From Candidatus Kapaibacterium sp. (GTDB taxonomy: Bacteria > Bacteroidota > Ignavibacteria > Kapaibacteriales > NICIL-2): a DNA stretch of 64,000 nt. The stretch's first letter is position 1; each line of letters begins with the position of its first letter. The notes beneath the pieces are model-generated. The model did not search any database, was not told the origin of the DNA, and was given only the letters and a program-made list of their open reading frames with translations. The translations under genes and the position numbers were made by a program. The stretch covers positions 18,113 through 82,112 of the forward strand of contig JBBATK010000010.1 of NCBI GenBank assembly GCA_040398805.1, given 5' to 3'. Positions 4,301 to 59,509 of this stretch are shown here, in pieces.

Positions 4301-5405
4301 CGATGATCGTGAGCGAGGGGTCGTATCCCGACGAACCGCCCACCGAGCCCGTGAGCATGTATTGACCGATGGTCACGGGCTTGTCGGCCCGGATCCACGC
4401 GGGTGAATTCACGCCGCTCATTGTCTGTATGTCGCCGGCGTTGGTCAGCATATACGAGAAATCCTGCCTCTCCGTGTACACGCTGATCCTTGTATTCGGT
4501 TGCGTGGCGACGATGCGGATGATATCGCCGACGGGTATCCTGGCGTCCGTATAGAACGGCGTCGTGAAGTACTCGTTCGTCAGGGTCTGGTCCGGCATGA
4601 GCCACTCCGCAAGATGGTCCTTGCTGTCCGCCGTCGTGACAAGTCCTTGAGGGACCGACGTGCGCGCGTGACCCGAGATGACGGCAATGGGACGGTTAGC
4701 GCGGATAAAACTGCCGGTAAGATCGCCGAGTTTGGGGGCGATGGGAGCGGACTTCACCAGGTAACACTGGCCTCTTTGCAAGGTGATTCTGCGTAGTTGC
4801 CCCGCCGGTATGCCGCCTTCGCTCGGCGCGGTGAGCAGAAGATCCACTGAGGTGTTGTCTTCGGAGGCCATGACGAGGAACTCGCTTTGGCGGATCTCCG
4901 ACGGTGGTATGCCCGTCGTATCCGTACCGAAACCGTATGCATCGTTCGGCATGCTCAATACCGTGTATTGCGTACCCCAGTTCGATACCGGTATCACTGC
5001 GTAGGAATCCGAGGTGGTGAACTGCGAGTTCATGGCATAGACGGCGATGGGAACGTCCGACGTGACGCGCACAAGGTTCGGCTTGACCACCTCGCTTTCA
5101 CGCATCTCCAGGATCGACGGAACGACAAGCGCGAGGGTGGAATTCGCAGAGATCGCATACGGGGTGGCGGAGCCGCCGGGGAATTGCACGGACACTTTGG
5201 CGGGCAACGACGTGGCGATGACCAAGCGCAGACGCAGGCCGGACGATTGGATGAAGTTCTCGTTCTGCATGTAGCCGACAAGGAAATCATATCCTTCGAA
5301 CGAGGAACCGCGCCGCTGCGCAAGCGAGTCCGTGAACTGCGCCGACACATGGCCGGCACACAGCCATATCGCAAGGACCGCCACTATGATTCGGATTCGT
5401 ACCAT
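1350..5405 (-). CDS. Giant secreted T9SS cargo protein A (1351 aa): signal peptide, IgGFc-binding-like N-domain, ASH/DUF1573-like repeats, type-A T9SS C-terminal sorting domain
   Basis: Signal peptide MVRIRIIVAVLAIWLCAGHVSAQ. N-region alignable by eye to protein B (IRIVATQPNTRISVYT vs IRIVATEDNTIVYTKT; GQYMLTGSV vs VGQYGKAW). Repeats start VDFGQVYIG, IDFGSRRIA, VDFDTIAVG. C-terminus ...DGLYRIELQSRDIEFQIPIMFFK is CTD-like. Confidence 0.8.
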   Translation of the reverse strand: MVRIRIIVAVLAIWLCAGHVSAQFTDSLAQRRGSSFEGYDFLVGYMQNENFIQSSGLRLRLVIATSLPAKVSVQFPGGSATPYAISANSTLALVVPSILEMRESEVVKPNLVRVTSDVPIAVYAMNSQFTTSDSYAVIPVSNWGTQYTVLSMPNDAYGFGTDTTGIPPSEIRQSEFLVMASEDNTSVDLLLTAPSEGGIPAGQLRRITLQRGQCYLVKSAPIAPKLGDLTGSFIRANRPIAVISGHARTSVPQGLVTTADSKDHLAEWLMPDQTLTNEYFTTPFYTDARIPVGDIIRIVATQPNTRISVYTERQDFSYMLTNAGDIQTMSGVNSPAWIRADKPVTIGQYMLTGSVGGSSGYDPSLTIIAPTDKYITRSVFQAPFNLGEPAFATQYQRHFVNLMCDSLARTSLKLDGVNIGKSIAPEILTAKFRSSPFFWAVIPISPGKHEITCDTGFFTGTLYGMGYTDSYAHTLGFATIAGKSDTLAPQFSYAVSCGVLTGSVREVVTSTSTGIAFVAIDADSTKNYDFSAVNVAGDPNTMTWTARPTNPYKDAQIFIVTRDKAGNGRVFRYYYKSPRFTQTTSLLFTTKTENDSLCQRLFVQNPSATDSLILRSVRLAGNTKEFVLNSLLPFPLRVPNKGGIDFAMCFLPKGQSGLKVTDTVIFDIGCGLSIRVVVKGTTPTSAMRVEDVDFGQVYIGDTVCTTMKVTNSGTRTATITKAYLSFPTAVFTTDAATSLPKTLAPGDSMALRVCFAPTDTFDLKRIMMFENSLGLDVQGEVRGQGIRSLLMYDSIDFGSRRIATFIDTNVVIRNKGNATANLVYASQRGDTQEFLHSLPAGRNVIIVPRDSFVIPVRFYPLTTGSYRSVLGFVSKRAKEPSVDISLRGRGTVPQITVADVDFDTIAVGAVQRKSSRLVLAFGNEPLTVDTITIQGPDASSFRIADRDRGYRVMQSGDSLVSAIDFVPKRAGFHTMTLVVRHDADRAYFRKESTIVIRGWARDTTTDDTTTTDTTKPKARRPTVRISQNSGFVCDTVRYSIAIVNIDTVPISVTDIKVRTNISSDTLIQYPGVRIVQAGTQDSVRGVLTPPIRSGTLRTTIRAGVWTIDTTISVTTRSASALVALLGPVAGTPDDTVLLVYSGRWERSAPSRPVTFAVSSSIPPSMLVPFSDKAVLKRRTTGALEPVNVLRTAGGLRIETQQRIVVGQAEDWTVEVPCLALLSQQQKASVVTTIEHDDCYAGARDTTQLSIAPVCAEDVRHIAFADVVVRAMYPVPAGDELHAEIESKIDGISLAVHAVDILGRKFPIAEKLFLRKGLNSLIFDTHSLTDGLYRIELQSRDIEFQIPIMFFK

Positions 5406-15400: not shown

Positions 15401-15741
15401 ACCGGTACGGCGCACTGCCGGACGCTGCGGAGAACCTGCTCTTCGCCGTGCGCCTGCGCCTTGCCGCACTGCCCGCCGGTTTCGATCGTCTTCTCGTGGC
15501 GAACGACCGACTCACCATCGAAATCGCCGCGAATATTCCCGAACAGTACGTCCAGCATGCCTTCCCCCGCGTCGTGAGCCGCGTCTCGCAGCGGGAAGGA
15601 TCGCAGTTCAAACAGAATCAGAAACGGATCATCATCGACATCCCGCTCGCACGACGGGAGGAAGCTCTCACTCTTGTGCAGTCGCTTTCCCTTGATGTGC
15701 AAGAAGCACTGATGTCGGCCTCGAAAAACCATGCGGCATGA
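12427..15741 (+). CDS. mfd: Transcription-repair coupling factor Mfd
   Basis: DEAD/helicase motifs (GDVGFGKTEVA, DEEQRFGV, TATPIPRT), TRG motif region, about 1100 aa. Start chosen at MADTAPPLLPL; the ORF-track start at 12247 is likely an over-extension. Confidence 0.9.
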   Translation: MADTAPPLLPLVRAFERTSFHRRLRSALDTGEQIRTRTLRGSLKSLAVASVHVHARRRLLVVCAPEVVSAWYHDLASMVPHTSIAAFPEASKTRTAISHHHEDMARIVDVVSTIEKSPLAIIIATPASFSVPLPKPESVVHNSMKLKRGDTQGFDELTTHLLLNGFERRDFVAQPGDIAVRGGIIDLFPVGWSTPLRIEFWGNSIDSVREFDPLSQRSIREHESVEFLARFISDEHDEFSCRLSDYVYPDTQIVLDEPDHLASLFDDLDATTLSEDLSARATLLINPIGSCIIETQSHAQLSADASMDAVYDELIRHQQSGTAVFVCAEGTIHTKRMHELLENVAERREADDDAETHLSTDRIHWLHGTPHAGFTWTEERLCVMTEHEVFNRQRFRDARRYAPSAGLTLRELQQLRRGDLIVHIDKGVGQFDGLETITISGSKQESVRLVFADNDVLYVHLNYLNKLQRYSAAEGTSPKLSKLGSGDWERKKARTKKKVKDIARDLIKLYAQRKSLRGYAFPADTIWQKEFEASFMYEDTPDQSRATAEVKADMEVPMPMDRLVCGDVGFGKTEVAIRAAFKAAQAGKQVAVLVPTTILAQQHYLTFSERLRRYPVTVDVMSRFRTPEEQKSVVERLKNGDVDILIGTHRLLSKDVEFRNLGLLIIDEEQRFGVGAKEKLRTLRANIDTLTLTATPIPRTLNFSLMGARDLSLIETPPRNRLPVQTSIIEWDADILREAINRELERGGQLYLVNDSIHELDEIAMRLVEIIPGLRFGIAHGQMDTKKLENVMERFLERKFDVLLSTKIVESGLDIPNVNTMIINHADRFGLAELYQLRGRVGRSNAQAYCYLCVPPVKTLNRTAIRRLQAIEEHTDLGSGFHLAMRDLEIRGAGNLLGAEQSGFIAELGLETYQRIVDEAVRELRHEEFSDMFPESELLNVSNEDLAVELDGDALLPESYVPKDTERFEFYKRLFNARTERSLEDIAGELRDRYGALPDAAENLLFAVRLRLAALPAGFDRLLVANDRLTIEIAANIPEQYVQHAFPRVVSRVSQREGSQFKQNQKRIIIDIPLARREEALTLVQSLSLDVQEALMSASKNHAA

Positions 15742-17125
15742 CCTTGCACCATATCGTTACCTGCTTCGCGCCGTCGCACTTCTCGTACTCGTGTGCGCAT
15801 GCGGCGCGGCGTCAAGGTCGGCCGACACGCTTCAGACGAAACGGCGGCTTCCGGGAGCGGTGAACGAGTATGCGCCGGTCGTGTATCCCCTCTTGAGTTT
15901 CGATGGTCGCACCCTGTACTTCTCGCGGAAGTACCATCCGGAGAACGTAGGAAAGACGCGGGACGCGGACGATGTGTGGTCATGCTCACGGGACAGTGCC
16001 GGGACGTGGTCGGAAGCGACGGATGTCACCCGGTTCAACTCACCCGTCAGCGACGTGCTCTGCAGCATCTCGCCCGATGGAACCACCGCTCTGCTGGCAC
16101 GGACAACGTCGGAGAATGACGCGCCCAGCGTCCGACTGTTCGTCATGAACCACACCGATTCAGGCTGGAGCGGACCGAAGCCCGTAACGATCGACGGGTT
16201 CATCGGTCGCACGTCGCATATCTACGCCCATCTCTCCTTCGATAACGCTACGCTGTTCCTGGCCGTGGACGTACCCGACCGCGGAATGGACATCTTTTCG
16301 TGCTCGCGTGTGGACTCCGTGCCCGATGCCTGGGTATTCAACCGACCGGTATCGCTGGGCGAGATGATCAATACCAAGGGTATCGAAGGTTCGCCCTTCC
16401 TGGCGTTCGACGGACGTACCTTGTATTTCACCTCGGATGGCCATGGAGGCTATGGAAGTCAGGATGTATTCGTGACGCGTCGACTCGATAGCACGTTCAC
16501 GTCGTGGTCGGCACCGGAAAACCTTGGAGACGGCATAAACACAGGGCTCATCGACCATTGTTTCTCGCTCTTCGCCGATGGTACGACGGCACTGATCGTG
16601 TCGGCGGACTCCTCGCGGAGCACCGGTGTCTTCGAAGTCACTCTTCCACCGAACCTGCGCATGGGACCCTCGATCGTGGGATCGGGCTCCGCTCGGCCGA
16701 CCACGGACACGGTGGTCGTCACCGTGACGTTCCCGACAAACAAGACGCGGATACGGGAAACGAATATCGACTCTCTGGTTCTTGCAAAGGTCCGCCGACT
16801 GCGTGGCACCTCCGTGCGGGTCGTCATCAGCGGCCATACGGACATGACCGGTATCGAGGCGAGGAACTCGTCACTGTCCATGCGACGGGCGCTGGTGCTG
16901 CGCAAGACACTCCAAGCGGTGTTCCGGAAGCGTGCGCCCGGACTGCGCGTGACAGCCATGCAATGCGCGGGCAAAGGCATGTCGGAACCCATCGGCGACA
17001 ATGCGACGGAGGCAGGACGTCAAGCCAACCGTCGGGCGACGGCGCGCATCATCATCGGCACAACACCGTCAAAAACGAATGGCGACACTGACCGCGGCGG
17101 CAGACCCCGTCGTCGGCGACGCTGA
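15731..17125 (+). CDS. TolB-like beta-propeller / OmpA-family C-terminal domain protein (peptidoglycan-associated)
   Basis: Signal peptide. Repeated FSxDGxTLYF propeller blades. C-terminal OmpA-like RVVISGHTDMTGIEARNSSLSMRRALVLRKTL...ANRRATARII. Overlaps the mfd 3' end by 11 nt. Confidence 0.75.
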   Translation: MRHDLAPYRYLLRAVALLVLVCACGAASRSADTLQTKRRLPGAVNEYAPVVYPLLSFDGRTLYFSRKYHPENVGKTRDADDVWSCSRDSAGTWSEATDVTRFNSPVSDVLCSISPDGTTALLARTTSENDAPSVRLFVMNHTDSGWSGPKPVTIDGFIGRTSHIYAHLSFDNATLFLAVDVPDRGMDIFSCSRVDSVPDAWVFNRPVSLGEMINTKGIEGSPFLAFDGRTLYFTSDGHGGYGSQDVFVTRRLDSTFTSWSAPENLGDGINTGLIDHCFSLFADGTTALIVSADSSRSTGVFEVTLPPNLRMGPSIVGSGSARPTTDTVVVTVTFPTNKTRIRETNIDSLVLAKVRRLRGTSVRVVISGHTDMTGIEARNSSLSMRRALVLRKTLQAVFRKRAPGLRVTAMQCAGKGMSEPIGDNATEAGRQANRRATARIIIGTTPSKTNGDTDRGGRPRRRRR

Positions 17126-28700: not shown

Positions 28701-30002
28701 ACCGTACCGGCGATGAGCAACTCCGTACCGGGTAGCATCAACGTGCCTGTAACGTTCACCGCACGTGTAGCCGGCGTGCAGTCCACGCGCGTCGTCGTCG
28801 ACTGCGATCTCGACGCATCGGAAATCCGCCACCCGCAGATTTTCGGTAGAGGTCAACCCAACATCAAAGTCGTTCCGGATTCTTTGGACTTCGGCGACGT
28901 GGCCAAGTGTGCAAGCAGCACGAACACGACGACAGTGAAGCTGCGGAATGAAAGCGATGTCGCGCTGACCATCAAGGACATCGTTCAATCCGGTGACTTC
29001 GCCATGTTCGAAGTGGATCTTGCCTCCAAGAACGCCCTGATCGGTTCGGTCATCCAGCCGCGCAGTGTCTCGGGTGCCCTCACGGTCACCTTCCGCGCTC
29101 CCAACACGGCAGGCCAGGAGCGTGCACGCGAACCCCACACCTTCGCTGAAGGAAACGGTGTCACGTGGAGCTGCGTAGGAACGAACGGCGAAGAGAACCA
29201 GCAGTTCTCCGGTCTGGCCGGTACGGCGATTCCGACCACGGTACTCGTCACGACCTTGCCCTCGAACAATTCCGGCGGATACCGGATCGAATCCTCGCGC
29301 TACAATCAGCCCGTCACTATGGAGTTCAACCTTCGCAGTAATCCCGAACCCGTCGATATCGCCGGTGTCACGTCGTTCCACGCATACATCAAGTACGACG
29401 CCTCGGTCCTGGAGCCCGTCCTGGATGCTTCATCCATCGGGCTGCGCGGAACCCTCTGCGACGGCTGGCGCGTGGGCAGAGTCCTGGACGTCAACGATGT
29501 CCTTGATGTGGAACTCATCCAAGACGATGCGAGCAAGATCCTTCGTGGTGCGGGAACCTTGTTCACCTTCCAGATGAAGGGCTTCTTCTCATTATTGCCG
29601 CAGGAGTCGGCCATCCTGGGTGCGGACATGTACGCCAACAAGTACACTGGCTGCTTGAATGTCGATAATGCGCCTTCGGTTGTCACGTTCCTTGGCGGTT
29701 GCGTCGCCGATCTGCGTCACGCGAATGTCTCCATAGGCGGCTATGCCCTTCGCGCTCCTCAACCGAATCCGGTCAATTCCACGACGAAGCTGAACTTCAA
29801 CGTGGGCTTGGATGCTCCCACCACGATCACCATTTATAATAGCCTTGGCGAAGTCCAGGTGGTCGCGGTCAACGGCGAGATGAAGGCCGGTTCCTACGAA
29901 GTGACCTTGGACCTGTCGTCTCTTCCGACGGGCACGTATTTCTGCAGAATGGTATCGGGTCCGTGGGTGAGCCCGGCGGTATCCATCTCGGTTCAGAAAT
30001 AA
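25710..30002 (+). CDS. Giant secreted T9SS cargo protein B (1430 aa): signal peptide, IgGFc-binding-like N-domain, ASH/DUF1573-like repeats, cohesin-like module, type-A T9SS C-terminal sorting domain
   Basis: Start at MNASITNNVLRVLAVCALMLTNALFAQ, preceded by AGGAG. Paralogous to protein A in the N-terminal 450 aa. Repeats IVDFGTLAINTD..., and similar. CTD ...GSYEVTLDLSSLPTGTYFCRMVSG...ISVQK. Confidence 0.8.
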   Translation: MNASITNNVLRVLAVCALMLTNALFAQTGKEILEGREFYFGVPHCDVQSGEGARGNPIQLWISCKVQTRVSVTVPRTGMNIGNYVIQPKKVQILPVPQSLMNTITGVTDNGIYIKSDDPITVTVYVSYKWTGEAYRVIPAEVLGKRYFTLNMYQDKTERERPAQLLVVATKDNTVVSVSPKTLTEDGVPAGGSKNYKLMRGQTLLVKAKIQPGKDLDWSTDLTGTKIIATSPVAVFSGHTKGAFPRFQATMLGTPANFMRNMMMDAMWPVEFLGKEYFSAPIMYTDRPRANFDLDSWGDLIRIVATEDNTIVYTKTCGGPNPDADYQPRYPALKAGQEYRIDSQEWPALYRASKPVLVGQYGKAWRLNQVQGTGKTNDGQNPSRNGQGMMYVLTPEEQWSTYTTFYSPETIDNFVMVTFYTADRGKLMFDGAPINAKFGSYIKQVSGSNKSYIVAPVSAGSHTIEGAKFTAYVYGNWDRTKDGFAYGYPTGVNFTQTCPDTILVNATINCGIVTGLAQIKPDTSSCSSIFSVELDNSASTNFRLDLDPNFESGQMKAAFTASVIDPTKDAHVRIIAVSRSGKESTVEFDYVAEAIAAKPTIVDFGTLAINTDSSANIKLTNVSKTETVVKNVFLRNKVPQFTIVPQQFPRSLEPGESMTVTVVARTAEKLTTTLKDSVIAELSCYESPVALLLLSGGTPCVRVSDVVFPPSPVNVEAGPRQCVISNTSKVDATISKITVPDDASGKKFRHDLKLPFKLVAGQSQSFNVWYTPSDLTTKDNINVVLETNGEPSCTDNESAWSGSGLDAGPKITDYDFRVVRVLDTYNRTVNGVTEYKGTVTIDAFGNDPLQNPRITVAQITAPTGADATTAIVLTTAGIPSQLFPNNPFNIPVSFRPDVVGDYGLRVTLTADFNGEPRVVSSTVIGRAVVPIEDSLGHTFPTTNIGATAPAGNVVIYNSGTMDLTIKYLSIDKTLDANNSFSIDPAWLATNLGGGKTITVPAMSNSVPGSINVPVTFTARVAGVQSTRVVVDCDLDASEIRHPQIFGRGQPNIKVVPDSLDFGDVAKCASSTNTTTVKLRNESDVALTIKDIVQSGDFAMFEVDLASKNALIGSVIQPRSVSGALTVTFRAPNTAGQERAREPHTFAEGNGVTWSCVGTNGEENQQFSGLAGTAIPTTVLVTTLPSNNSGGYRIESSRYNQPVTMEFNLRSNPEPVDIAGVTSFHAYIKYDASVLEPVLDASSIGLRGTLCDGWRVGRVLDVNDVLDVELIQDDASKILRGAGTLFTFQMKGFFSLLPQESAILGADMYANKYTGCLNVDNAPSVVTFLGGCVADLRHANVSIGGYALRAPQPNPVNSTTKLNFNVGLDAPTTITIYNSLGEVQVVAVNGEMKAGSYEVTLDLSSLPTGTYFCRMVSGPWVSPAVSISVQK

Positions 30003-30026
30003 GGTCGGATTCCTCTCAAGTAAAAC

Positions 30027-30061
30027 TCCCGTGTCATGATTGACACGGGAGTTTTTTTTTG
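30027..30061 (+). terminator. Rho-independent terminator after cargo gene B
   Basis: Perfect 11-bp stem CTCCCGTGTCA / TGACACGGGAG with a TGAT loop, followed by nine T residues. Confidence 0.8.
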
Positions 30062-30510
30062 CCCCCCGGGGTCCCGTCCTCCCGGTGCTTTTATCTCTCC
30101 TCGTCGTGAAAAGCTCTGACCCGAAAAAAAAATCTCTGCCTCGTGTCCACTTCCGGGTCCCCCAATCGTTTTGTGTAGAGGGACGAGACAACGTTTCTTC
30201 AGAGTGTGGGTCGGTGTTTTATATACAAGAGCGGGTATGGCGATATCGAACCACACGAAGAGAGACCGAGTCGATGTTCTTCAGTTCAAACGTTTTCTCT
30301 GCAGTCAAGCATTTCTGCGTCTCGTCGGACGGGTTCTTCACGAATGACGGCATGCGGTCCGGACTTGACCTTTGAAGAAGCAGAGAAGACGGATGAACGG
30401 AGGACATGATCGTTTCCGAAAGTATCCCTTGAGTGAGACGGGGTCCATGATCACATAGTGGAGAGAGTGGATCCTGTCTCTTTTTATATCACCACATCAA
30501 CGAGGATATC

Positions 30511-31026
30511 ATGAAATCTACGATAACGACCATAGTACTGACGGTTGCATTTCTCGTCATTCCAAGCCGGACGACGGCGAACACCCTGCCGGTGGTTCAT
30601 GCCCCGACGACCACCGTTAGCGCGCAGGACAGGGTATGGGCGGACTTTTTCGGCTTAAGCATCGAACTCACTTTCGGCACGAACATACCGTCCTGCCGCT
30701 GCTGCTATGGCGGCATTTGCAGCGTAAAGGCGACCATTCCGTTCTTTCTGAAAAAGGGTCCTCTCAACGATGAATACATCGCTTCCCAGGTGCGCGGCTT
30801 CCAAGCAAACGATCAGGCGAGCATAGGACGTACCTCGACCGGAGAGGTGTATCTACTGTTCAACAGGGACATCACACGCCCCGAGTTCCTCGGATCCCAA
30901 CTCACTATCACCGCACCCGTGCACGTCGATCCCGTCCTCGTCAAACAATACAACATCCCGCAGATACCGGCCGGTACGTACGACATCACGGACAACGGTT
31001 TGTTCAAAATGATACGGATTCAATGA
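30511..31026 (+). CDS. Hypothetical small secreted protein with CRCCYGGIC cysteine cluster
   Basis: Signal peptide MKSTITTIVLTVAFLVIPSRTTA. No family recognised. First gene of a four-gene co-directional set. Confidence 0.45.
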   Translation: MKSTITTIVLTVAFLVIPSRTTANTLPVVHAPTTTVSAQDRVWADFFGLSIELTFGTNIPSCRCCYGGICSVKATIPFFLKKGPLNDEYIASQVRGFQANDQASIGRTSTGEVYLLFNRDITRPEFLGSQLTITAPVHVDPVLVKQYNIPQIPAGTYDITDNGLFKMIRIQ

Positions 31027-31027
31027 C

Positions 31028-31666
31028 ATGATGCAGTTGAGAACCATCGCGCGTCCACGAGTTTTCAGAATCGTCCTCGTCGCAATCATCTGCATCGTTG
31101 TGGCCATCATATGGATGATCGGACCATACGTGTGGAACATGGCGGTCGTCATGGGAATGAGACCGTGGAACATGCGAACGCATACCCGAGCGGAGATCAT
31201 CGCACTGGCTGATAGAGAGCCGCTTCGACAGCATGGACAGCTCTACGGAGAACATGCTGCCGTCGCAACGATCTTCTCGAAGGGCGGCGGCATCGACGAT
31301 GGCTCGGAACCGGCCTACCTCGTGTTCGACCGCGATGGTTTTCTCCTGCGTCAGCATGCGTGTTTCGAATCGATGCCGGGTTTTCTCGACAGCACCAGGA
31401 GAGTCCGCGGTTGGTACGAAAAGGACACCATGTTCACCCTTCATGACTGTACGCGTGTCCTTCGTTCGCTTGGTTCAATGAAGCCGTTCGAGCTTGATAC
31501 CGCATCCAAACCCGACTATACCGTCATCCTTGGCTGGAACGACTACTTCCGCCATGCTGAACGGAAGATCGATTCGTTCCTCGTCGCCATTCGAACCAAG
31601 CCGTATACGACTCGCGTCCTCATGGTCAACACGAATGCGAAAGACTCCTCGTTCATCAAAAAGTGA
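31028..31666 (+). CDS. Hypothetical membrane-anchored protein
   Basis: N-terminal transmembrane helix IVLVAIICIVVAIIWMIGPYVW. Starts 2 nt after the previous stop. Confidence 0.4.
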   Translation: MMQLRTIARPRVFRIVLVAIICIVVAIIWMIGPYVWNMAVVMGMRPWNMRTHTRAEIIALADREPLRQHGQLYGEHAAVATIFSKGGGIDDGSEPAYLVFDRDGFLLRQHACFESMPGFLDSTRRVRGWYEKDTMFTLHDCTRVLRSLGSMKPFELDTASKPDYTVILGWNDYFRHAERKIDSFLVAIRTKPYTTRVLMVNTNAKDSSFIKK

Positions 31667-31851
31667 TCACTGCCGGTACGGGTGACTGCGGGAATCGTGA
31701 TCCCGTAGGACCGGATCGAAAGGCCACACGAGGATATTCGTCTTCTACGGTATGCACATGACTTCTTCCTACCCTCGACAGCACCGGTAGCCGTTCTTCG
31801 GAGCATCCTTTATCATTCACCATTCTTGTTTGTATCACCACTCCCCCGTGT

Positions 31852-32427
31852 ATGAGTATCTCCCTTTCACGCCTCACCGGCACTCTTCTCTGCGGAACGG
31901 CTCTCGCATGCATTGCGATTCCTCTTTCACCCCACTTCGTCCGCGTCCTCTCACCGGAGCATCGAATGGTCGTGGAGACAGGACCGCACGAGAGGAACAG
32001 GAGGAAGCTCACCACGATCACCCCGGCGGAACTACGACGACTCGTCGAGAGAATCAAGAAAGACACCGTCATCATTCACTTCTGGAACACATGGCGAAGT
32101 GACGGCACACGATACGTGCGGGTGTTGAGGGAGTATTCCTCGCGCACGCATCCGAAGACGGCGGTGGTGCACGTATGCACCGACATGACAGGCATACAAC
32201 AACAGAAGGCCTCCCGATTGGTCGCCGAACGACTTGACATCCCTGGTCCGTTACTCGGCGTGCGGTCCAGCGCCAGCATCTTCGATCTTCACAACATCGA
32301 GGCTACGACGCATTTTCATCGAAGCTTGACCGGCAGAGTACCCGATACTGTCTCGCCATCCGTGCTTGCACTGAACAAGGATGGGATACCCATCGATCTT
32401 GATGCCGTAGCAGGTAGGTCACGATAG
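31852..32427 (+). CDS. Thioredoxin-fold-like protein with degenerate active site (WRSDG in place of WCxxC), secreted or lipoprotein
   Basis: N-terminal signal with LLCGTALAC. VIIHFWNTWRSDG resembles the TlpA/thioredoxin beta1-alpha1 motif but lacks both cysteines. Low-confidence fold call. Confidence 0.35.
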   Translation: MSISLSRLTGTLLCGTALACIAIPLSPHFVRVLSPEHRMVVETGPHERNRRKLTTITPAELRRLVERIKKDTVIIHFWNTWRSDGTRYVRVLREYSSRTHPKTAVVHVCTDMTGIQQQKASRLVAERLDIPGPLLGVRSSASIFDLHNIEATTHFHRSLTGRVPDTVSPSVLALNKDGIPIDLDAVAGRSR

Positions 32428-32705
32428 CCCGATAGCTTCAAGGCAGAGTACCGGTCGGACAGATACCATCTCCGATCCCCACCGGGCCTTGGGCTTCCCG
32501 ATGCCAAGGACTGCACAACGTGCGAAGAGAAGGAATGAGCCCCGCGTCCCCCATGCGTCATTGGAGTGAGTTCAATCTCCACGGAGGACGCACGATACGG
32601 TCGTGGAACATGTACGCGATACGTATCTCCCGGCCTCATCCTTCTCTTTCGTGCGTGTATCGCCGAACAGATTCGTCTCAGACTCATCCTCTTCATCACC
32701 ACGTC

Positions 32706-33614
32706 ATGAATCATGATTCCCACTGTCTATTATCTCTGGTATGTGCGTTCGCATTCAATACCTCGCTCCTTTGTGGAGGAAACAGCGATTCGAGCGGAAG
32801 ACGTCAGCAAACCGACTCCGCCTCGCGCACGGAAAGCATGTCCGTTGCCTTCAGTCTCTCTCACCAGCAAGCGTACGACTGGCAACTCGGCGAGGTCTTT
32901 CATGTCGATAGCCGCTGCACAGCTCGGTACCGCTCCGTGTGGACCCGAACTTCCATGCAAGTTTCCGCGGAAATACGAGGTCACTTTGCAACACTCTATA
33001 CATCCCATGTACCCGGCATCGTCGGACCCATCATCCGTTGTACGGACGGCGAAATCACGAGTCAGGTGAAATCCGTGTTCCATCAGGGGTGGATCATCGA
33101 TCCCTATATCCGCACGACCGTCACCACACCCGTCACGGAGATCTTTCCGGCACCGATGCAAAGCATGCAAAGGAGCGCTGCATGGTGGGATCCGGTTCAG
33201 AGCGACCAATCCTGTGGTTTTCACTATCGCCTCTTTCCCGCCTCCGTCCATTCGATGACCGTCCTGTTCGGAACCAACTACCGACAGATCCGCGCGCGAC
33301 ATCACACGCGCATCACGGACGATCCCTTGACCATCCATGCCATCGAATCCTACCGCACCTCCCTAGGCATCGAGTGCCTCATGCAGTCCGATTTCCTGCT
33401 CGACTCCTCGGTCCGGATCTCCAACCTGTGTCAAACGCGCGCCACCGGCCTTCGTGCGAGTTCCGTCCAGTGCTCGCTCGACAATGAGATACGCGTGAAG
33501 TTCTGGCGATACTTCGGACTCTCTCTTTGCACCAACCTTCGGTACGATAGGTCACTGAGCAGAAAACTCATCTACAAACATGTCGCGCAAATCGGCCTTG
33601 TCTGGGAACACTGA
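32706..33614 (+). CDS. Hypothetical lipoprotein (302 aa)
   Basis: Start at MNHDSHCLLSLVCAFAFNTSLLCGG (lipobox-like LLCGG). The tracked ORF 32520 start is probably an over-extension. Confidence 0.4.
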   Translation: MNHDSHCLLSLVCAFAFNTSLLCGGNSDSSGRRQQTDSASRTESMSVAFSLSHQQAYDWQLGEVFHVDSRCTARYRSVWTRTSMQVSAEIRGHFATLYTSHVPGIVGPIIRCTDGEITSQVKSVFHQGWIIDPYIRTTVTTPVTEIFPAPMQSMQRSAAWWDPVQSDQSCGFHYRLFPASVHSMTVLFGTNYRQIRARHHTRITDDPLTIHAIESYRTSLGIECLMQSDFLLDSSVRISNLCQTRATGLRASSVQCSLDNEIRVKFWRYFGLSLCTNLRYDRSLSRKLIYKHVAQIGLVWEH

Positions 33615-34215
33615 ACTCAGTGCACGGAGAAGATCTGCCATCCAACATCGCAATCCGTGCGCGCGATGTCTCGTCATGAATAGAGTTTTCCACATAGTTC
33701 CGACTCGGACGACCTTATTAATTGTAGAGTTTATTTTATTGACTATCAACGCTTTAACATTCCACCAGGTCAAGCGAGACAGTAGATCCTAGCTGTGTTT
33801 TCCACAACAGAGGTACCCATACGATCAACCATTCACCATGGACTCCTTGACGTCGTTGACAGGGATGTCACGTTCACTCAGCCGCACGGAAAACAACCGT
33901 GCACGACCGGAGCTCACGCTCCGTCCCACCACCATATCACCTCCGGAAACGGTCGCATCGAGAGACACATCCAAGGGATTGCAGCGGTCATGACACCCTC
34001 GACGATCGCCACGGAACACCCGTCGAACCTTTCCGCGAGTGTCCACGCGGGACATCATTCACTCCCACCCGGATTGTTACCAAATCCACACATGCGTGTT
34101 CATTGCCACCCATCCTCACTTCAGTAACTTTGTACACTCTCTTTCGGGTACCTACACCCGACTTTCGTTTGGACGTAACGAACACGTAGTATCATTCATA
34201 CATTCTCCATTCATT

Positions 34216-37200
34216 ATGAGAAAACTTCTTCTCTGTGTCGGTCTATTGTTGCTGCAGGTTGCTTCGGTAATCGCGCAAACCAATCCGACCCCTTTCGATC
34301 TGGGTACGGGCACGTATTCATTCACCCAGTGGGATGCGACAAATCCTGCGCGGACCTATCCGCCGAACATGCGTCTGCATACCTTCTCGACGACGAGTTC
34401 GTTGACGGCCGTGGAGCCGCTGCGTCTGGACTATGAAATGAATGCGGATTGGGACACCACATATAGCCTCATCAGTGGTGCCCGCTTCAACGGCTTGGGC
34501 GCCGACGGCATGTCGTTCCTGAACACCTCGAGTTCCGCATACTCGCCGTTCCGCTTCTTCGGTGCGATGGTTCTCGGCCTGAATACGACCAACAGGCAGA
34601 ACATCCGTGTCACCTGGACGGGCGGTACGGTTGTCTCGCAGACACGTCTTTATGCGATCGTCCTCCAATATCGCGTCGGTACATCAGGCGCATGGTCCAC
34701 AGCAATCAACAACGCGACCGATACGGTTCAATACAAGTCGAGCACAACGGGTAATGCCCAAGCGATGCCCTCGTTCACCTTGCCCGCCATCTGCGAGAAT
34801 CAACCGAACGTGCAAGTTCGTTGGAGAATGTACCAGTGGAGTTCTGCATCGTCGGGCAGCCGTCCGCAGCTTCGGGTCGACGAGATTTCCGTTCAAAGCG
34901 ATGCGAGCACCGGCACCCCCACGAAGCTGGCAGTGGTCGGCATCAACCCGGCCGTACCGTCAACATTGACTCCGTTCAGCGTAACCGTCCAGTCAAGAAA
35001 TGCGGACGACCAGGCAAGAAACGTCCTTACAAGTACGGACGTCGCGCTAAGCGTATTCACGGGTAGCGGAGTGCTCAGCGGCACAGTAACCGGAACCATT
35101 CCTGCCGGAAGCAACACGCTCGTTCTCAACAATGTCATGTATAATGTCGCAGAGCAAGGCGTGGTCCTGCAGGTCTCCCGCACAGCCGGAGACGCGCTTT
35201 CAAGCGCGCTCACATCTCCGTTCACCGTCGTTCCGCGAGCAACACAACTGACCATGACTTCGGTGCCCGCGAACGCGTTCGTCGGCATCGCCCTTCCAAC
35301 GGTTTCCATTACGGCGCGTCGCGCAGACAACTCTGTCGACCTCAACTATCCCGGTCCGATCACCATTTCCAAGGCAAGCGGTCCCGGTAATGTCACGGGT
35401 ACGCTGACCGTCACGCCCGTCAACGGTGTCGCCAATTTCACGGGTCTCGGCTTCGACGCTCCCGGCACCTACGTGCTCACGGCGAGCGGTGCGAACGTAA
35501 CGAGCGCCACCAGCACAGCCATCGTCGTCGTCGGACAACCTTCTCTTGCGGAGCTTGTCATGCCGCAGTTCATGGCGGCCCGCAGTATCACGTTGCCCAC
35601 GTTCGCCCTTATCCGCATAGACAACCTCCAACCGAATTCGGCGTACCGATATTATACGGCGGCGGCCGAAATCAACAACTTGGTGGGTTTCGCCGCTGGA
35701 ACGAATATTCACCTGAATACGAACGCATCGACGTTCTCGTACGTACCGAACAGCTTCAGCGACTTCGGCACGCCGGGTCGATACTCGGAATTCACGACGG
35801 GTGCCAACGAAACATCGAAGGTCCTGTGGGTGAACCTCGTTCCCTCCAGCAACTCGCGTTTCACCGCCGGTAACAATATGTTCTGGTACTTCTCGCTGCG
35901 CGATACGACACGGAGCATCGAAACGCGCTTCGTGACGCAAGGAACGACAAGAACCATCAACATCTCCACGGCAGCCACCGACGCATCGGGTATCGTCGAC
36001 ACCGCCAGCACCTGCGATCCCAAGACCGTCATCTGTCTGTACGATAACACGACGGGTACTACTCAACCGCTCGCCACTGCCCTCGTGCAAGACGAAGGCA
36101 CGGTCGTAACGAACGCACCGGCCTTTTACTCGGGTGTCGAGACGCGTCGCACCGCATGGGCCACGCTCATCCCGAACAATCTTCCGAACGGCATCCGCCG
36201 TGTCGAGCAGCGGTCCCTTACCACCGGACAGATCCTGAAGGTATGGGTGGACGGTGACGGCGTATGGCCGCCGTCGAACACCGTGAACCCGTCCGGCGGA
36301 AACAACGCCGTCATGTTCGCGACTCCTCAAGTGAACTTCCCTACAAGCCTCACGGGCAAGAGTTTCTGCAGTAATCAACCGGCGGTCATCACATGGAACG
36401 CGCGCGGAATCTCCACTGTGGATCTTCAGATCACGGCCGACGGAACCACGTACACGACCATTGCGAGCGGAATCAACGCGTTGCTTGGTACGTTCACATG
36501 GACCATCCCGAGTCAGTTCGCCGGCGGTAACAACCTTCGCCTGCGAATCGTCGACACCGATCGTCCGACGACTGTCTCGGACATCTCCGGCTTCATCAAT
36601 GTCAATACGCCTGCCGTGATTACTCTGCAGCCCGAGAACAAGGAGGCATGTCTGGGCGGTACGGTCACCCTGAGTGTTCGCGCCAGCGGAACGGCTCTCA
36701 CGTATCAGTGGGAAAAAGATGGCGTACTCATGGCTGGTAGAAACAGCGCAACACTCGAAATCCCTACGGTGACCAATGGCACAAGCGGACTCTACCGTTG
36801 CATCATCAACGGTGGTTCCGGTTGCCCCGGCGCTACGTCAGGATACGCGTTCATCTCCATCATCCCCGAACTCCAAGTGGTATCGCAACCGCAAAGCACC
36901 TCGGCCGCCGTCGGCGGTACCGCCGTCCTTCGCGTGGAAGCGAATCTGCAAAGCGGACTTCTCTACCAATGGTACCGTGGAACAACGTTGCTGAGCGATA
37001 ACGCCCGCATCACGGGTACCCGCTCCTCGTCTCTCACTCTGCGTAACATGATCGCCGCCGATTTCGGTAACGACTACCAATGCCGCATTGTCTCCAATTG
37101 CGGTTCGATCCTGTCGGAAAAGGCGAGTATCTCATCGGCCAGCATTACGATAACGACCCAGCCGGAGTCGGTCGATGCCTGCTCCGACAACGACGCATCC

Positions 37201-55628: not shown

Positions 55629-56211
55629 ATCAAGGCTTTTTCACGAGTACCACGCCGTACGAGCTGAACGAGAACTACTGCGGATTCGCCTGCATGAACG
55701 TCCTATACTGAATCGCATCAAGGTGCCGTCATAGGCGCTTACGCTCAAGGAACTGGTTCCAAGGTAATCCGCATTCTGGGTACGGATTTCTCGTCTCTCA
55801 CCCGGCAATCAGCCATGTCAAAACAAGACAATTTTCGTTCAGTTCGATGTTGTCCTTGTCCCACAGATTATCCCCGTTTCATCAAATCCCGAGGCACCCT
55901 CGTTGATACATTCCCCGACATACTCATCATCTCTCTATCCAGCCGTCTCATACGATACGATCTGCTATATTTTCATCCCGCGATATTTTCTCATTTTTTT
56001 GTGTAAGTTGCTTTACGGCTAGTCAGGGTTCTTTTTTTCGAAGCACTAGATATTCCCTTAACAACTTTCGCGAATCTGCGCTTTACCTCTTGCCCGTCAT
56101 CTATCGGTCATCGTTGGCATATTATTCGTCTCTTCCGCTTTTTAAACTTCTGTTATTTCTGCGAGACAATTTCTGACGAACAACGTTTTTAAACATTTTT
56201 TGGGTGGTTTT

Positions 56212-56814
56212 ATGAAAACATTGGCCCTTAGCCTCCTGACATTACTTTGCTTTTTCACGACCCCCTCCGCGCGAGCCCAATGTCCACCGGGATGGACGAC
56301 AGCAACTCCCACCTTCGTCATAAACCCTTCCTGCTCGATTACCGTTACCATTTGTTATATCTGCTCTCCAAGCGGCGGGTCCCCGACTACCATTCTTATC
56401 GCTGGTTGGTACCAATCCAGTCCTTGCTCGGGAGTGGATTTCGGGAATGATTTTATTGTCTCACTTTTCATCCAACACTACGACAGTTTTTGCACTATTA
56501 CCGATTGTCGTTCTGGATGTACGGATTTCATAGTGGACATCCCCGCTTGTCGTCAATGGTATTACAACTATAATCCCCCTTTGCCTCTTTTTTATTGGTG
56601 GGAACCATGTTCATCCAGTTCAAAACATTGCACTGTCACAACGAGTATCTGCCGTGATTCACAGACCGGGTCCATAATTGAATGCGGTTCTCGCAGTTAT
56701 GGTAGTTATGGCATTTCATGTGCCACGGCCATCCCGCCACCATCCGGAACGCCCTCGCCTTCAGGAAACCATATACCCTACGGTGTTTGTAATGCTGGAG
56801 ATTCGTGTCCTTGA
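56212..56814 (+). CDS. Cysteine-rich (24 Cys) small secreted protein, no recognised family
   Basis: Signal peptide MKTLALSLLTLLCFFTTPSARA. Mature protein about 180 aa with paired Cys spacings and a PPPSGTPSPSG linker. Local GC is about 10-15% below the flanks. Confidence 0.5.
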   Translation: MKTLALSLLTLLCFFTTPSARAQCPPGWTTATPTFVINPSCSITVTICYICSPSGGSPTTILIAGWYQSSPCSGVDFGNDFIVSLFIQHYDSFCTITDCRSGCTDFIVDIPACRQWYYNYNPPLPLFYWWEPCSSSSKHCTVTTSICRDSQTGSIIECGSRSYGSYGISCATAIPPPSGTPSPSGNHIPYGVCNAGDSCP

Positions 56815-56953
56815 TAAGGTTTTGTGAACGTGAGTGTGAGGATATTGCGTCGTAGATCGGAGCAATTGTCGACTGCCTCTCATTATTCAACGACTCGGCC
56901 GGCGCAAAGACATAGTAGCTGTCTATCACTTTCCAGGTTTTCATATTTCTTTA

Positions 56954-59509
56954 TTGCTCACTTCCATGTTTTTCTTCTACTTATTCATTTTTGAGCTTGT
57001 ATGCAGCTCTCAATTATGGTCCAGTCCTGTTTCTGGAGACATGACATATTTGACCACAGACTATAAAGGTGTCGCGTCGAACGGCTCCACAGTCTTGAGT
57101 TATGGTACTCATGGTATCATACTAAGGTCAACCGATAAGGGAGCGTCGTGGTTCAGAACGTCAATCGGAAATGACAATGATGTCATTCGCATTGATACGA
57201 TCAACTCTTCGTATGTAGCACTCACGAGGTCCGGTTTGCTGAGATCCGACGACAATGCCTCGACGTGGACTCGCACGGCCATTGAGAATGGAGTGGATAT
57301 GTGTCGTGACAAAGACACCATCTATGTCCTCACGAAATACGCTATCGTTCGTACGACATTCTCGCGTATGGCTGACATCAGCACGCTCGTGAGCATGGAT
57401 TCCACGGTGAGTGCTCGATCCATCGTTGCCTCGGCGCGAGGAAGTCTTCACTGGATAGAGGACAACAGATATGTACGCCACTATTCCTTATCGTCCAAGA
57501 CATCCACAGCGACCGACGTACTTTCGCTCAACCAGTGTCCTACCTGCTACAGAATCGATGGATTGCAGCAAAACATGGGCAAACTGTACGTCGCTATCGT
57601 CAACACGAGAAACAATCCCGTTGGTGCCCTGCCTTTCGAATTCTATCAGGTATATATGTCTCCCAACCTAGGATCGTCATGGCAGCGATACTCGGCGGTT
57701 GACTCATTCGATGAAAACACTCTGGGAACAGCGAACTTCAAAGTCGTCAGCGATAGTCAGATTATCGCGTTACGAACAAAGGTACTGCCGCAAAGCGTGT
57801 ACATCCCGGCACCTGATACGCTGAACAGGAAGTTACATCAGTGGTTTGTCGGTATCGAGTATCTTTCGTTCAATAACTCCGGCACTTCCAGTATCATCAA
57901 TCCCGACGATACCATCCCGGAGCGCTATGCCTTATCGTCGGACCTACGCCTGAACTCTCTTCTGGATTTGGGTAATGGTATCATCGTTGCCAATGGCAAC
58001 AATCATTGCATTGTCCGAAGCACCGACAATGGTCGGTCATGGCAACTTCAGTCGTACTTTCCTAACGACGCAGTTTATTCCACGCCATTTTTCCGCGGCG
58101 TGGATTCAAACCATCTCTATATGCCGTGCGCACAAGGGGCGTTTTATCGGACCGACAACGCAGGGTTAACGATTCTCCCCCAACGCTTCCAATTCTATCC
58201 GCAGTATCTAGCCAAGGGTGCGGGCGTCGTGTTTTCGCACTACGACAGTAGCGGACATGGGTGCGTGATAATTCAAGCCGGACTGGAGCTTGATTCGAAC
58301 GTATTTATCACGAACGACTTCGGTGAAACGTATTCGCCAGTAGGCGTACTACCTTTATTTAATGTTTTTGCGTCAGACTCTGTTCAAAGGACGAAGTACC
58401 GGCTAACGAACATCATGATTCGCAATGAGGTGGAAACCGATACGGTCTTCCTGCTAGCCGGCACACCGACATATGTTGATGCCAATAACACGTTACAGCG
58501 CTATCCGTACAGTGTCGTGATACGCCTCAACAAACAGTATGGGCTTATTGACACGGTGGCTTTGCCGGTATCGAAAGTGGCGATGTTGATCCGAGCGGGA
58601 CGATTGGTGTATTTGTTCGGCACGAACGGGGAGGACCTATCATACAAGCGAAATGTAGCGGACCTCGTGTTCCCGACGTATGCGATATATCGGAGTATTG
58701 ATGATGGACGGACGTGGGAATCTGTCTCGACCTCCTTACCCATACCTAACGAATATGTCAAGGTAGGACAGCAGTACGCTGCAGTCGTACCGGATTTCAG
58801 ACCGGCCATTGTCTTCGACAGTACTCTCGTCGTCAGTACGGGTCAACGTCGCCTCCTCATCTATTCAAAGGATAAAATGAGACCGGATTCGTTGCATCTG
58901 CCTTTCGATCAGAATCTGCTGTATCTCGGAGAAACCATGATAAGCTCCGATAATGCACTCGCTATAGCGTCAATCGACGGCAAACTATTCAGCACTGCGC
59001 TTATTGAGGATGACAAAACCGTCTGGGATTCCAGCCCTCTACAGTCAGGATTGTCGTGGGACGGCCCACGTCTTCGTTTGCAAAGATTCATTCCCGTTTC
59101 AGATAATACCGGCTTTACGGTTACCGGTGAGTACAAAGACACGGACCGTAAATACAAGACGCATCTGTTACGTTATTCATTGAACATCCCGATTTCGGAT
59201 GTCAAGGAAGACGTTCGCACTCTTCGTTTGTGGGAATCCTTGCCGTACCCGCAGCCCGCTCGACACACCGTGATGACCAGGATCTACTGGGACAAGCCGT
59301 GTTCACTTCAAGATCTGGAGATTTCTCTTTTCGATTTCGTCGGTATCCTCGTTGACGGTGATACCCATTCCAGTAGGATTGCAATAACCGCGGTTGATGA
59401 GATCAGTGCATCTCTCGCCGTTGATTGTAACGGGTTGACACCGGGCGTCTATTTCATCCGAGTCCGGTTGAGGAATTCCGATAGAACGATTCCGTTCGTC
59501 GTGCAATAA
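56954..59509 (+). CDS. BNR/Asp-box repeat beta-propeller protein (sialidase-/Ycf48-like fold) with type-A T9SS C-terminal sorting domain
   Basis: Asp-box repeats STDKGASW, SDDNASTW, STDNGRSW, SIDDGRTW. CTD ...GLTPGVYFIRVRLRNSDRTIPFVVQ. Low GC. Likely true start a few codons in (MFFFYLFIF... signal). Confidence 0.7.
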   Translation: MLTSMFFFYLFIFELVCSSQLWSSPVSGDMTYLTTDYKGVASNGSTVLSYGTHGIILRSTDKGASWFRTSIGNDNDVIRIDTINSSYVALTRSGLLRSDDNASTWTRTAIENGVDMCRDKDTIYVLTKYAIVRTTFSRMADISTLVSMDSTVSARSIVASARGSLHWIEDNRYVRHYSLSSKTSTATDVLSLNQCPTCYRIDGLQQNMGKLYVAIVNTRNNPVGALPFEFYQVYMSPNLGSSWQRYSAVDSFDENTLGTANFKVVSDSQIIALRTKVLPQSVYIPAPDTLNRKLHQWFVGIEYLSFNNSGTSSIINPDDTIPERYALSSDLRLNSLLDLGNGIIVANGNNHCIVRSTDNGRSWQLQSYFPNDAVYSTPFFRGVDSNHLYMPCAQGAFYRTDNAGLTILPQRFQFYPQYLAKGAGVVFSHYDSSGHGCVIIQAGLELDSNVFITNDFGETYSPVGVLPLFNVFASDSVQRTKYRLTNIMIRNEVETDTVFLLAGTPTYVDANNTLQRYPYSVVIRLNKQYGLIDTVALPVSKVAMLIRAGRLVYLFGTNGEDLSYKRNVADLVFPTYAIYRSIDDGRTWESVSTSLPIPNEYVKVGQQYAAVVPDFRPAIVFDSTLVVSTGQRRLLIYSKDKMRPDSLHLPFDQNLLYLGETMISSDNALAIASIDGKLFSTALIEDDKTVWDSSPLQSGLSWDGPRLRLQRFIPVSDNTGFTVTGEYKDTDRKYKTHLLRYSLNIPISDVKEDVRTLRLWESLPYPQPARHTVMTRIYWDKPCSLQDLEISLFDFVGILVDGDTHSSRIAITAVDEISASLAVDCNGLTPGVYFIRVRLRNSDRTIPFVVQ

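Follow-up and report, generated by a model that had tools for sequence, protein, structure and literature searches.

Organisation of the locus

A 64,000-nt stretch of a Candidatus Kapaibacterium sp. genome (GenBank GCA_040398805.1, contig JBBATK010000010.1, positions 18,113–82,112; hereafter the window, in whose coordinates all positions are given) contains a block of four open reading frames (ORFs), g1–g4, preceded by a structured leader RNA of ~300 nt (30179–30485), all on the forward strand. The block lies between B, a type IX secretion system (T9SS) cargo gene that ends at 30002, and gene C, which starts at 34216. According to the ORF listing, g1 (30511–31026) encodes 171 aa, g2 (31028–31666) 212 aa, g3 (31852–32427) 191 aa, and g4 (32706–33614) 302 aa when read from its ATG, or 364 aa if read from a GTG at 32520. 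The latter start was discarded, since the codon score of 32520–32705 is negative and the sequence upstream of ~32679 is unconserved even in the closest species.

An earlier, sequence-only reading of this region had described a tightly packed operon of four co-directional genes. While the four do share one direction, only g1 and g2 are closely spaced, being 1 nt apart rather than the 2 nt given there. This gap is kept across the close clade, i.e. the seven species-level variants represented by the window, L046, L018, L015, L011, L020 and L045. The g2–g3 and g3–g4 intervals measure 185 and 278 nt, respectively, and gave no blastn alignment, even against the closest species. Terminator prediction between 31027 and 33614 returned just two weak, 5-bp candidates, located inside g2 and g3. 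The terminator noted after B was recovered as a 15-bp stem followed by a T9 run (30022–30055, + strand), with compensatory changes in the stem between species (alignment A6). As had also been noticed, the GC content of the block is modestly below that of its neighbourhood (0.553 vs. 0.577 for the window, 0.570 for B and 0.585 for C), and the AT-richer stretch of ~600 nt before C proved to span 601 nt at a GC content of 0.504. No paralogues of g1–g4 were found within the window, and searches of Pfam and NCBIfam with the four proteins themselves gave no direct match at E ≤ 1.

A conserved, structured leader RNA upstream of g1

No element of the locus is better conserved than the leader stretch that precedes g1: in a blastn search with 29900–34400, the interval 30122–30516 retained 75% nucleotide identity to the most distant close-clade species, vs. 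66–72% for the genes. It opens with a candidate block promoter (30144–30177, + strand), consisting of TGTCCA (30144–30149) and CGTTTTGTGTA (30167–30177) separated by a 17-nt spacer. Across eight lineages, namely the close clade and the distant relative L052 (GCA_039810585.1), both sequence elements are invariant and align without gaps, the spacer being fixed in length and variable in sequence (alignment A12). From this layout of two blocks with a fixed spacer, we infer that 30144–30177 acts as a promoter rather than as RNA. A search of the window for an extracytoplasmic function (ECF) sigma/anti-sigma pair that might go with the promoter-like site found none.

The leader RNA downstream of this site was delineated by covariation, folding energy and conservation, and comprises three parts on the + strand: a long 5′ hairpin (30187–30272), a middle domain (30275–30406) that includes an invariant 12-bp helix (30291–30302/30380–30391), and a terminator/attenuator hairpin (30435–30485) with a 14-bp stem (30435–30480) and a U-run (30481–30485). 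The ATG of g1 follows 25 nt past this terminator, with a Shine–Dalgarno (SD)-like GAGGA in between. When the seven close-clade species were folded with RNAalifold, 21 of the 95 resulting pairs covaried, vs. 12.8 ± 2.0 in column shuffles (0/500), and the number of covarying pairs dropped to 3–8 when the partners were slid. For the 5′ hairpin with L052 added, 11 of 30 pairs covaried vs. 4.1 ± 1.5. The minimum free energy of the + strand was −140.9 kcal/mol (z = −4.27), compared to a z-score of −1.34 for the – strand. The terminator hairpin (ΔG of −18 to −27 kcal/mol) is followed by 5–10 U residues in all seven close species, and its stem covaries as well (GAGAC/GTCTC vs. CGAGC/GCTCG). Upstream of g1 in L052, the 5′ hairpin was detected both by nhmmer (E = 1.6e-12) and with a covariance model (94 bits, E = 8e-23), with several G–C pairs swapped to C–G. 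Two scans against Rfam (4227 families) returned no match; the leader is a previously undescribed structured RNA.

Translation of the leader could be excluded because of 1-nt indels between species. For instance, an invariant ATG at 30236, considered as the start of a leader peptide or hidden ORF, opens differing frames between species as a result of such indels, and the same frame problem disqualifies a 62-aa ORF that some gene callers place on the minus strand. In the eight lineages, the leader occurs as a single copy per locus and always ahead of g1; since L052 has the leader but no B at this locus, the element is to be assigned to g1 rather than B. A metagenome scan for a wider distribution, seeded with an invariant 18-mer, yielded 23 contigs whose remaining sequence was matched by neither nhmmer nor the covariance model. 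Lacking further similarity to the leader, these contigs are chance matches. The arrangement of conserved 5′ structure, terminator and closely following gene suggests a possible conditional attenuator.

Four fast-evolving genes in a conserved order

In a codon log-odds model trained on the long ORFs of the window, the annotated frame scored highest for all four ORFs, at values (0.006–0.137) below those of neighbouring genes (0.12–0.31); GC content at third codon positions (GC3) is likewise lower in the block. The proportion of nonsynonymous differences (pN) ranged from 0.11 to 0.33 in every species pair vs. a saturated 0.53–0.93 for synonymous ones (pS), and the closest pair gave nonsynonymous-to-synonymous rate ratios (dN/dS) of 0.07–0.22. 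Judged by codon usage and substitution patterns, the four ORFs are real genes under purifying selection. Identical copies of g1, g2 and g3 fall in small 90%-identity clusters of the public collection. The N-termini of the encoded proteins also keep their hydrophobic character among orthologues.

The order g1–g2–g3–g4 is the same, with ORFs open, in the seven close variants and L052, except where short contigs end early and for one in-frame stop in g2 of L018. The latter, a single TAA in a metagenome-assembled genome (MAG; GCA_046091485.1, L018 1811–1813), corresponds to CAA (Gln) in a near relative and would reflect an error of sequencing or else a nonsense mutation that arose very recently. 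In L052, the order g1–g2–g3–g4–C–D is kept and B is missing from the locus. Protein identities to the window are 48% for g1, 30% for g2, 32% for g3 and 27% for g4, and 72%, 59% and 53% for LGT, C and D, respectively. As synteny holds despite these low identities, the block is old and fast-evolving rather than a recent insertion, which runs counter to the earlier suggestion of an inserted island: the block occupies the same position even where LGT and C have diverged to 72% and 59% identity. Its conservation next to cargo genes with a C-terminal domain (CTD), which had been proposed as a check, was borne out, the block adjoining C and D orthologues on their upstream side in all eight lineages; nor is it confined to one strain, as six other close variants and L052 carry it. 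The proteins of the block diverge far faster than the flanking C, D and LGT, and the RNA ahead of them is unusually conserved. Between g3 and g4, L052 carries an extra ORF (L052 6487–7341; 284 aa) of low complexity with no Pfam match and no counterpart in the window, which may not be a real gene.

By name, the homologues belong to Candidatus Kapaibacterium and come from freshwater MAGs. By this distribution, the module appears lineage-specific, limited to Candidatus Kapaibacterium and relatives, and the view that it represents an undescribed system holds insofar as no description of the block as a system exists.

g1 and g2 encode putative envelope proteins of orphan families

The N-terminus of g1 is signal-peptide-like, with A-x-A-type sites in orthologues, and is followed by a variable linker and a conserved domain. 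The motif CRCCYGGIC occupies residues 62–70, and its four cysteines (C62, C64, C65 and C70; CxCCYGGxC) are invariant, L052 included. The description of g1 as a secreted 171-aa protein with this motif is therefore retained, but not that of a cysteine knot-like cluster: a cystine knot needs six cysteines in three interlocked disulfides, and g1 has only the four, all within nine residues. At 90% identity, its homologues collapse into just four of 5.8 billion protein clusters, and they occur in only two GTDB species. An AlphaFold2 (AF2) model of g1 (predicted local distance difference test, pLDDT, of 48) retrieved nothing below E = 0.35 from the PDB using Foldseek. We predict g1 to be a Sec-secreted protein of an orphan family.

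In g2, one strongly hydrophobic segment lies near the N-terminus (approximately residues 13–31; KD19 3.03), in agreement with the single transmembrane helix assigned to this 212-aa protein beforehand. L052 carries a deletion in the second half of the segment, which argues for one helix. The predicted extracytoplasmic domain contains the near-invariant motif RQ(H/Y)xCFESxPGFxDS, with C112 invariant, and profile searches retrieved neither a family nor a PDB match. g2 is thus a predicted bitopic membrane protein with an orphan, outward-facing domain. Prompted by a thioredoxin-like EPAYLVFDRDG preceding ILGWNDYFRH, a circularly permuted thioredoxin fold was considered for g2 and found unsupported: when profiles of native and permuted g2 were compared with that of g3, no more than 22 columns matched (E = 0.1), and the permuted profile returned no thioredoxin from the PDB.

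g3 resembles a thioredoxin that has lost its active-site cysteines

Where thioredoxins have FWxxWCxxC, g3 reads FWNTWRSDG. The CxxC site is R-S-D-G in the window, with the variants RCDG and RNDG elsewhere and SQPEG in L052, and no g3 orthologue has a cysteine at either catalytic position. With both CxxC cysteines gone, canonical disulfide exchange is impossible. Other residues are invariant, namely P169, H76, H100, H107 and C109, the latter two forming an H107-x-C109 motif. P169, which lies in V-S-P-S-V-L and is itself invariant in all lineages including L052, would be the cis-Pro that precedes strand β3 of thioredoxins, as we infer from the model and the TlpA-like topology. A hydrophobic N-terminal anchor and the adjoining APHF motif are conserved in all lineages, which identifies public g3 gene calls of 153 aa as truncated.

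Searching PDB sequences with a g3 profile gave five weak matches (E = 0.3–1.1), three of them thioredoxins (TRXz, CITRX), whose alignments place FWNTWRSDG on FYATWCGPC. The best Pfam score came from one orthologue (Thioredoxin_8, E = 0.26); g3 of the window itself had no thioredoxin match in Pfam. The AF2 model is of low confidence (pLDDT 44), with an order of secondary-structure elements that fits a thioredoxin fold. Among the Foldseek matches listed from the PDB, all fifty were thioredoxin-fold proteins, led by ResA and TlpA, with a best E-value of 5e-4 and TM scores of 0.33–0.42 for this low-confidence model. Alignment to TrxA and neighbouring thioredoxins puts FW..W of g3 in line with the active-site helix. 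With moderate confidence, we regard g3 as an N-terminally anchored, TlpA/ResA-like thioredoxin fold. This agrees with the sequence-only reading, which had described a thioredoxin-fold-like protein with WRSDG in place of the redox motif and had considered that it may be catalytically dead or a chaperone-like binder; the former fits as far as the canonical CxxC mechanism is concerned. The structure-based homology search proposed there returned thioredoxin folds for the low-confidence g3 model and no fold match for g1.

g4 is related to outer-membrane barrel families and may derive from an ancestral gene pair

A phmmer search with g4 against 1.84 billion representative sequences identified 88 relatives, most of them 270–300 aa in length; 51 have E ≤ 1e-10, and full-length matches go down to E = 1e-43. 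Among 50 aligned homologues, 31 match DUF3078 (PF11276; best E = 3.3e-10) and 12 match DUF481 (PF04338), two models to which g4 itself shows no match at E ≤ 1. The motifs WDPxxSxQ and QxRA...TDD are common to g4 and its homologues. A signal peptide is present, and L052 as well as several homologues end in a C-terminal aromatic residue. Within the clade, C170 and C224 are invariant; this pair is not conserved in the wider g4 family. From these features, g4 is predicted to be a signal-peptide-bearing outer-membrane barrel, remotely related to DUF3078/DUF481. The earlier call of a 302-aa lipoprotein was correct as to length only, since L018 has Tyr and L020 has Arg in place of the supposed lipobox cysteine, L052 lacks it altogether, and position −1 is occupied by Leu or Val and in no case by Gly, Ala or Ser. 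Likewise, the statement that none of the four proteins belongs to a recognisable family agrees with the direct Pfam and NCBIfam searches, but fails for g4 once its homologues are taken into account. N-terminal extensions of two homologues (P0042 and P0070), examined as possible fusions, look like over-extended ORF calls.

Three distant neighbourhoods of g4 homologues were informative as to the gene upstream. In L047, this gene encodes a TlpA-like thioredoxin with an intact CAPC (AhpC-TSA, E = 1e-6), and in L049 a fusion of tetratricopeptide repeats (TPR) and thioredoxin with CGLC; in L050/L051, it is unrelated to thioredoxin. As two of the three pair a g4 relative with a CxxC-containing thioredoxin-like gene, the g3–g4 pair looks ancestral. 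This suggests that it is older than the block and that the thioredoxin lost its cysteines in Kapabacteria.

Neighbouring genes and side observations in the window

B, C, D and a gene at 1350–5405 encode immunoglobulin (Ig)-rich proteins, and Por_Secre_tail was detected in B and C. Upstream of C, a promoter-like site (34103–34182, + strand) consists of TTG (34103–34105), a 19-nt spacer and TAACTTTG (34125–34132), accompanied by a palindrome, TTCGTT..AACGAA (34164–34182). It is conserved in five lineages, most of the 601-nt spacer before C being unalignable, and likely marks C as a separate transcription unit. The TTG-19 nt-TAACTTTG arrangement resembles the −33/−7 promoter consensus of Bacteroidota.

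Elsewhere in the window, a 279-aa ORF on the minus strand (502–1341) has a good codon score, a signal peptide and no Pfam match, and terminates in ...GIEARFAL like an outer-membrane barrel. It lies directly downstream of a second IgGFc_binding giant gene (1350–5405, − strand) and is not similar to g4. A protein of 464 aa (15731–17125) combines PD40 β-propeller repeats with an OmpA domain, recalling T9SS PorE/PG1058 or the Tol–Pal type. In the region 56000–59500, GC content falls to 0.45–0.50. This region encodes a BNR/Sortilin-like protein of 851 aa that matches Por_Secre_tail weakly and has a very low codon score (0.04), and may be foreign DNA.

A candidate cell-envelope module and alternative explanations

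Our best explanation, which we put forward tentatively, is that the block forms a lineage-specific cell-envelope module of Candidatus Kapaibacterium and relatives behind a structured leader. Transcription of g1–g2, and probably onward of g3–g4, would need read-through of the leader terminator, with the leader serving as a conditional attenuator that responds to some ligand, protein or envelope signal. The ancestors of g3 and g4 would have been an active TlpA-like thioredoxin and a DUF3078-like barrel, encoded as a pair that distant relatives retain. Without CxxC exchange, g3 would most likely serve as an adaptor of the binding or holdase type, by analogy with redox-inactive thioredoxin-fold domains known elsewhere, and together with g2 would connect the inner membrane with the g4 barrel; g1, with its cysteine cluster, would be the likeliest client or partner of this link.

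Several points weigh against this explanation. At the terminator position of L052, there is a hairpin without a U-run. Truncated folds revealed no consistent antiterminator pairing, the only option being a 5-bp UAUCCC:GGGAU helix in four of seven species, and the RNA stopped by the terminator could be no more than an independent small RNA. The gaps of 185 and 278 nt could hold separate promoters. A thioredoxin gene upstream of the barrel is missing from one of the three informative distant neighbourhoods. Confidence in the g3 model is low and no Pfam model is significant for it, while structure and profile searches yielded no fold match for g1 or g2. Finally, g2 and g3 contain invariant single Cys and His residues, which leave room for chemistry that does not depend on CxxC.

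It seems unlikely that the components do not form one system at all, i.e. that the RNA is an independent small RNA or a mere promoter/operator, and that g1–g2 and g3–g4 are unrelated neighbours held together by general synteny. The RNA does end in a full terminator, the first 35 nt of the conserved stretch are promoter-like, the two unconserved gaps allow for separate promoters, and the flanking LGT, C and D are syntenic as well. However, the RNA is found once per locus and only ahead of g1 in eight of eight lineages, the 25 nt between terminator and ATG leave no room for a promoter, and the order g1–g2–g3–g4 survives at protein identities of 27–48%. A further alternative, which we consider decidedly improbable, is a thiol or metal relay without CxxC, in which invariant Cys and His residues would bind a metal (e.g. 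copper) or hand a thiol-linked group on from inner membrane to barrel. The residues concerned (CxCCxGGxC in g1, C112 in g2, H76/H100/H107/C109 in g3, C170/C224 in g4) are invariant across six lineages including L052 despite an overall identity of only 27–48%, and four cysteines within nine residues would be unlikely as a purely structural disulfide pattern. Thioredoxin-fold metallochaperones are known, Sco being one. Yet Pfam, NCBIfam and PDB profile searches recognised no metal-binding motif or family in g1–g4, no metal transporter or oxidase gene is conserved beside the block, and the cysteine pair of g4 is not shared by its wider family. That the block is a recently acquired foreign island, as its lower GC content (0.553 vs. 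0.577) and codon scores (0.006–0.137 vs. 0.12–0.31) might hint, is hardly credible, being already contradicted by synteny: every relative found, one with 72% LGT identity among them, has the block in the same place on the chromosome, the window contains no mobility genes, flanking repeats or paralogues, and the block is found only in the Candidatus Kapaibacterium lineage.

More closely tied to the neighbourhood, but in our view doubtful, is a role as T9SS cargo-handling accessory, in which the four proteins would fold, tether or export the adjacent giant CTD adhesins with g4 as dedicated outer-membrane partner. In eight of eight lineages, L052 included, the C and D orthologues directly follow the block, and DUF3078 and DUF481 proteins of P. 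gingivalis have been shortlisted as T9SS-associated: in a differential genomics study from 2016, PG1786 (PF11276) and PG1685 (PF04338) scored as such by prediction only (PMC5053529, Table 1), a shortlist repeated in PMC9722745. The literature on DUF3078 and DUF481 consists of proteomic sightings and this comparative-genomics shortlist, with no demonstrated function. Against an accessory role, the shortlist is a prediction alone, the L052 locus lacks B, C is preceded by a conserved promoter-like site of its own within a mostly unconserved spacer, and evolution of the block is much faster than that of C and D. Moreover, g1–g4 have no match to Por/Gld/Spr families in Pfam or NCBIfam and no CTD/Por_Secre_tail, and none of the 50 g4 homologues matches the PorP/SprF model. 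The most far-reaching version, in which the leader represents a new class of ligand- or protein-sensing attenuator that switches on a trans-envelope module, made up of a thioredoxin pseudo-enzyme without its cysteines, two orphan proteins and a DUF3078-type barrel, which services the neighbouring type IX-secreted adhesins, strikes us as a long shot.

Were this last version true, it would provide the first function for DUF3078/DUF481 barrels and confirm the T9SS prediction of 2016. A genuine attenuator would by itself add a class of structured regulatory RNA from Kapabacteria, which rank at phylum level and are known almost entirely through metagenomes, and tie a regulatory signal to envelope proteins without assigned function. 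The recurring pair of a TlpA-like thioredoxin and a DUF3078-like barrel offers a testable handle on two widespread outer-membrane families of Bacteroidota, and the apparent loss of both redox cysteines in g3 under purifying selection would be a clean natural case of an enzyme fold adopting a non-catalytic role. Confinement of the module to a narrow, uncultured lineage makes experimental follow-up hard.

Relation to known systems

Like the PorP/SprF partners encoded beside T9SS type-B cargo, g4 is a gene for a predicted outer-membrane barrel of ~300 aa that adjoins genes for giant CTD adhesins. Unlike them, g4 and its homologues lack a PorP/SprF match, and g4 lies upstream of C, which has a separate promoter-like site, rather than directly downstream of a cargo gene. 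It is closer to DUF3078 (PF11276) and DUF481 (PF04338, YdiY-like) proteins, with which it shares a similar length, a signal peptide and sequence motifs, but falls below every Pfam threshold, carries a clade-specific cysteine pair and is only 27% identical to its L052 orthologue.

With TlpA/ResA thioredoxins, g3 has in common an N-terminal anchor, the predicted β-α-β ... β-β-α order and a putative cis-Pro loop; it differs in the loss of both catalytic cysteines, in an invariant H107-x-C109 elsewhere in the fold, and in a best Pfam E-value of 0.26. Redox-inactive thioredoxin-fold binding domains do exist, for instance as domains b and b′ in protein disulfide isomerase. Although g3 has no sequence relationship to these, would be membrane-anchored in a bacterial periplasm and is only predicted to bind, a thioredoxin fold that lacks CxxC and is under purifying selection suggests, as a working analogy, binding of a ligand or client.

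The leader, finally, departs from known terminator-based riboswitches and attenuators in having no Rfam match, in a folded part of ~250 nt, larger than most aptamers, and in being known from one narrow lineage with one locus per genome. What it shares with them is the succession of elements: a covarying 5′ structure, then an intrinsic terminator, the SD-like GAGGA and a start codon.

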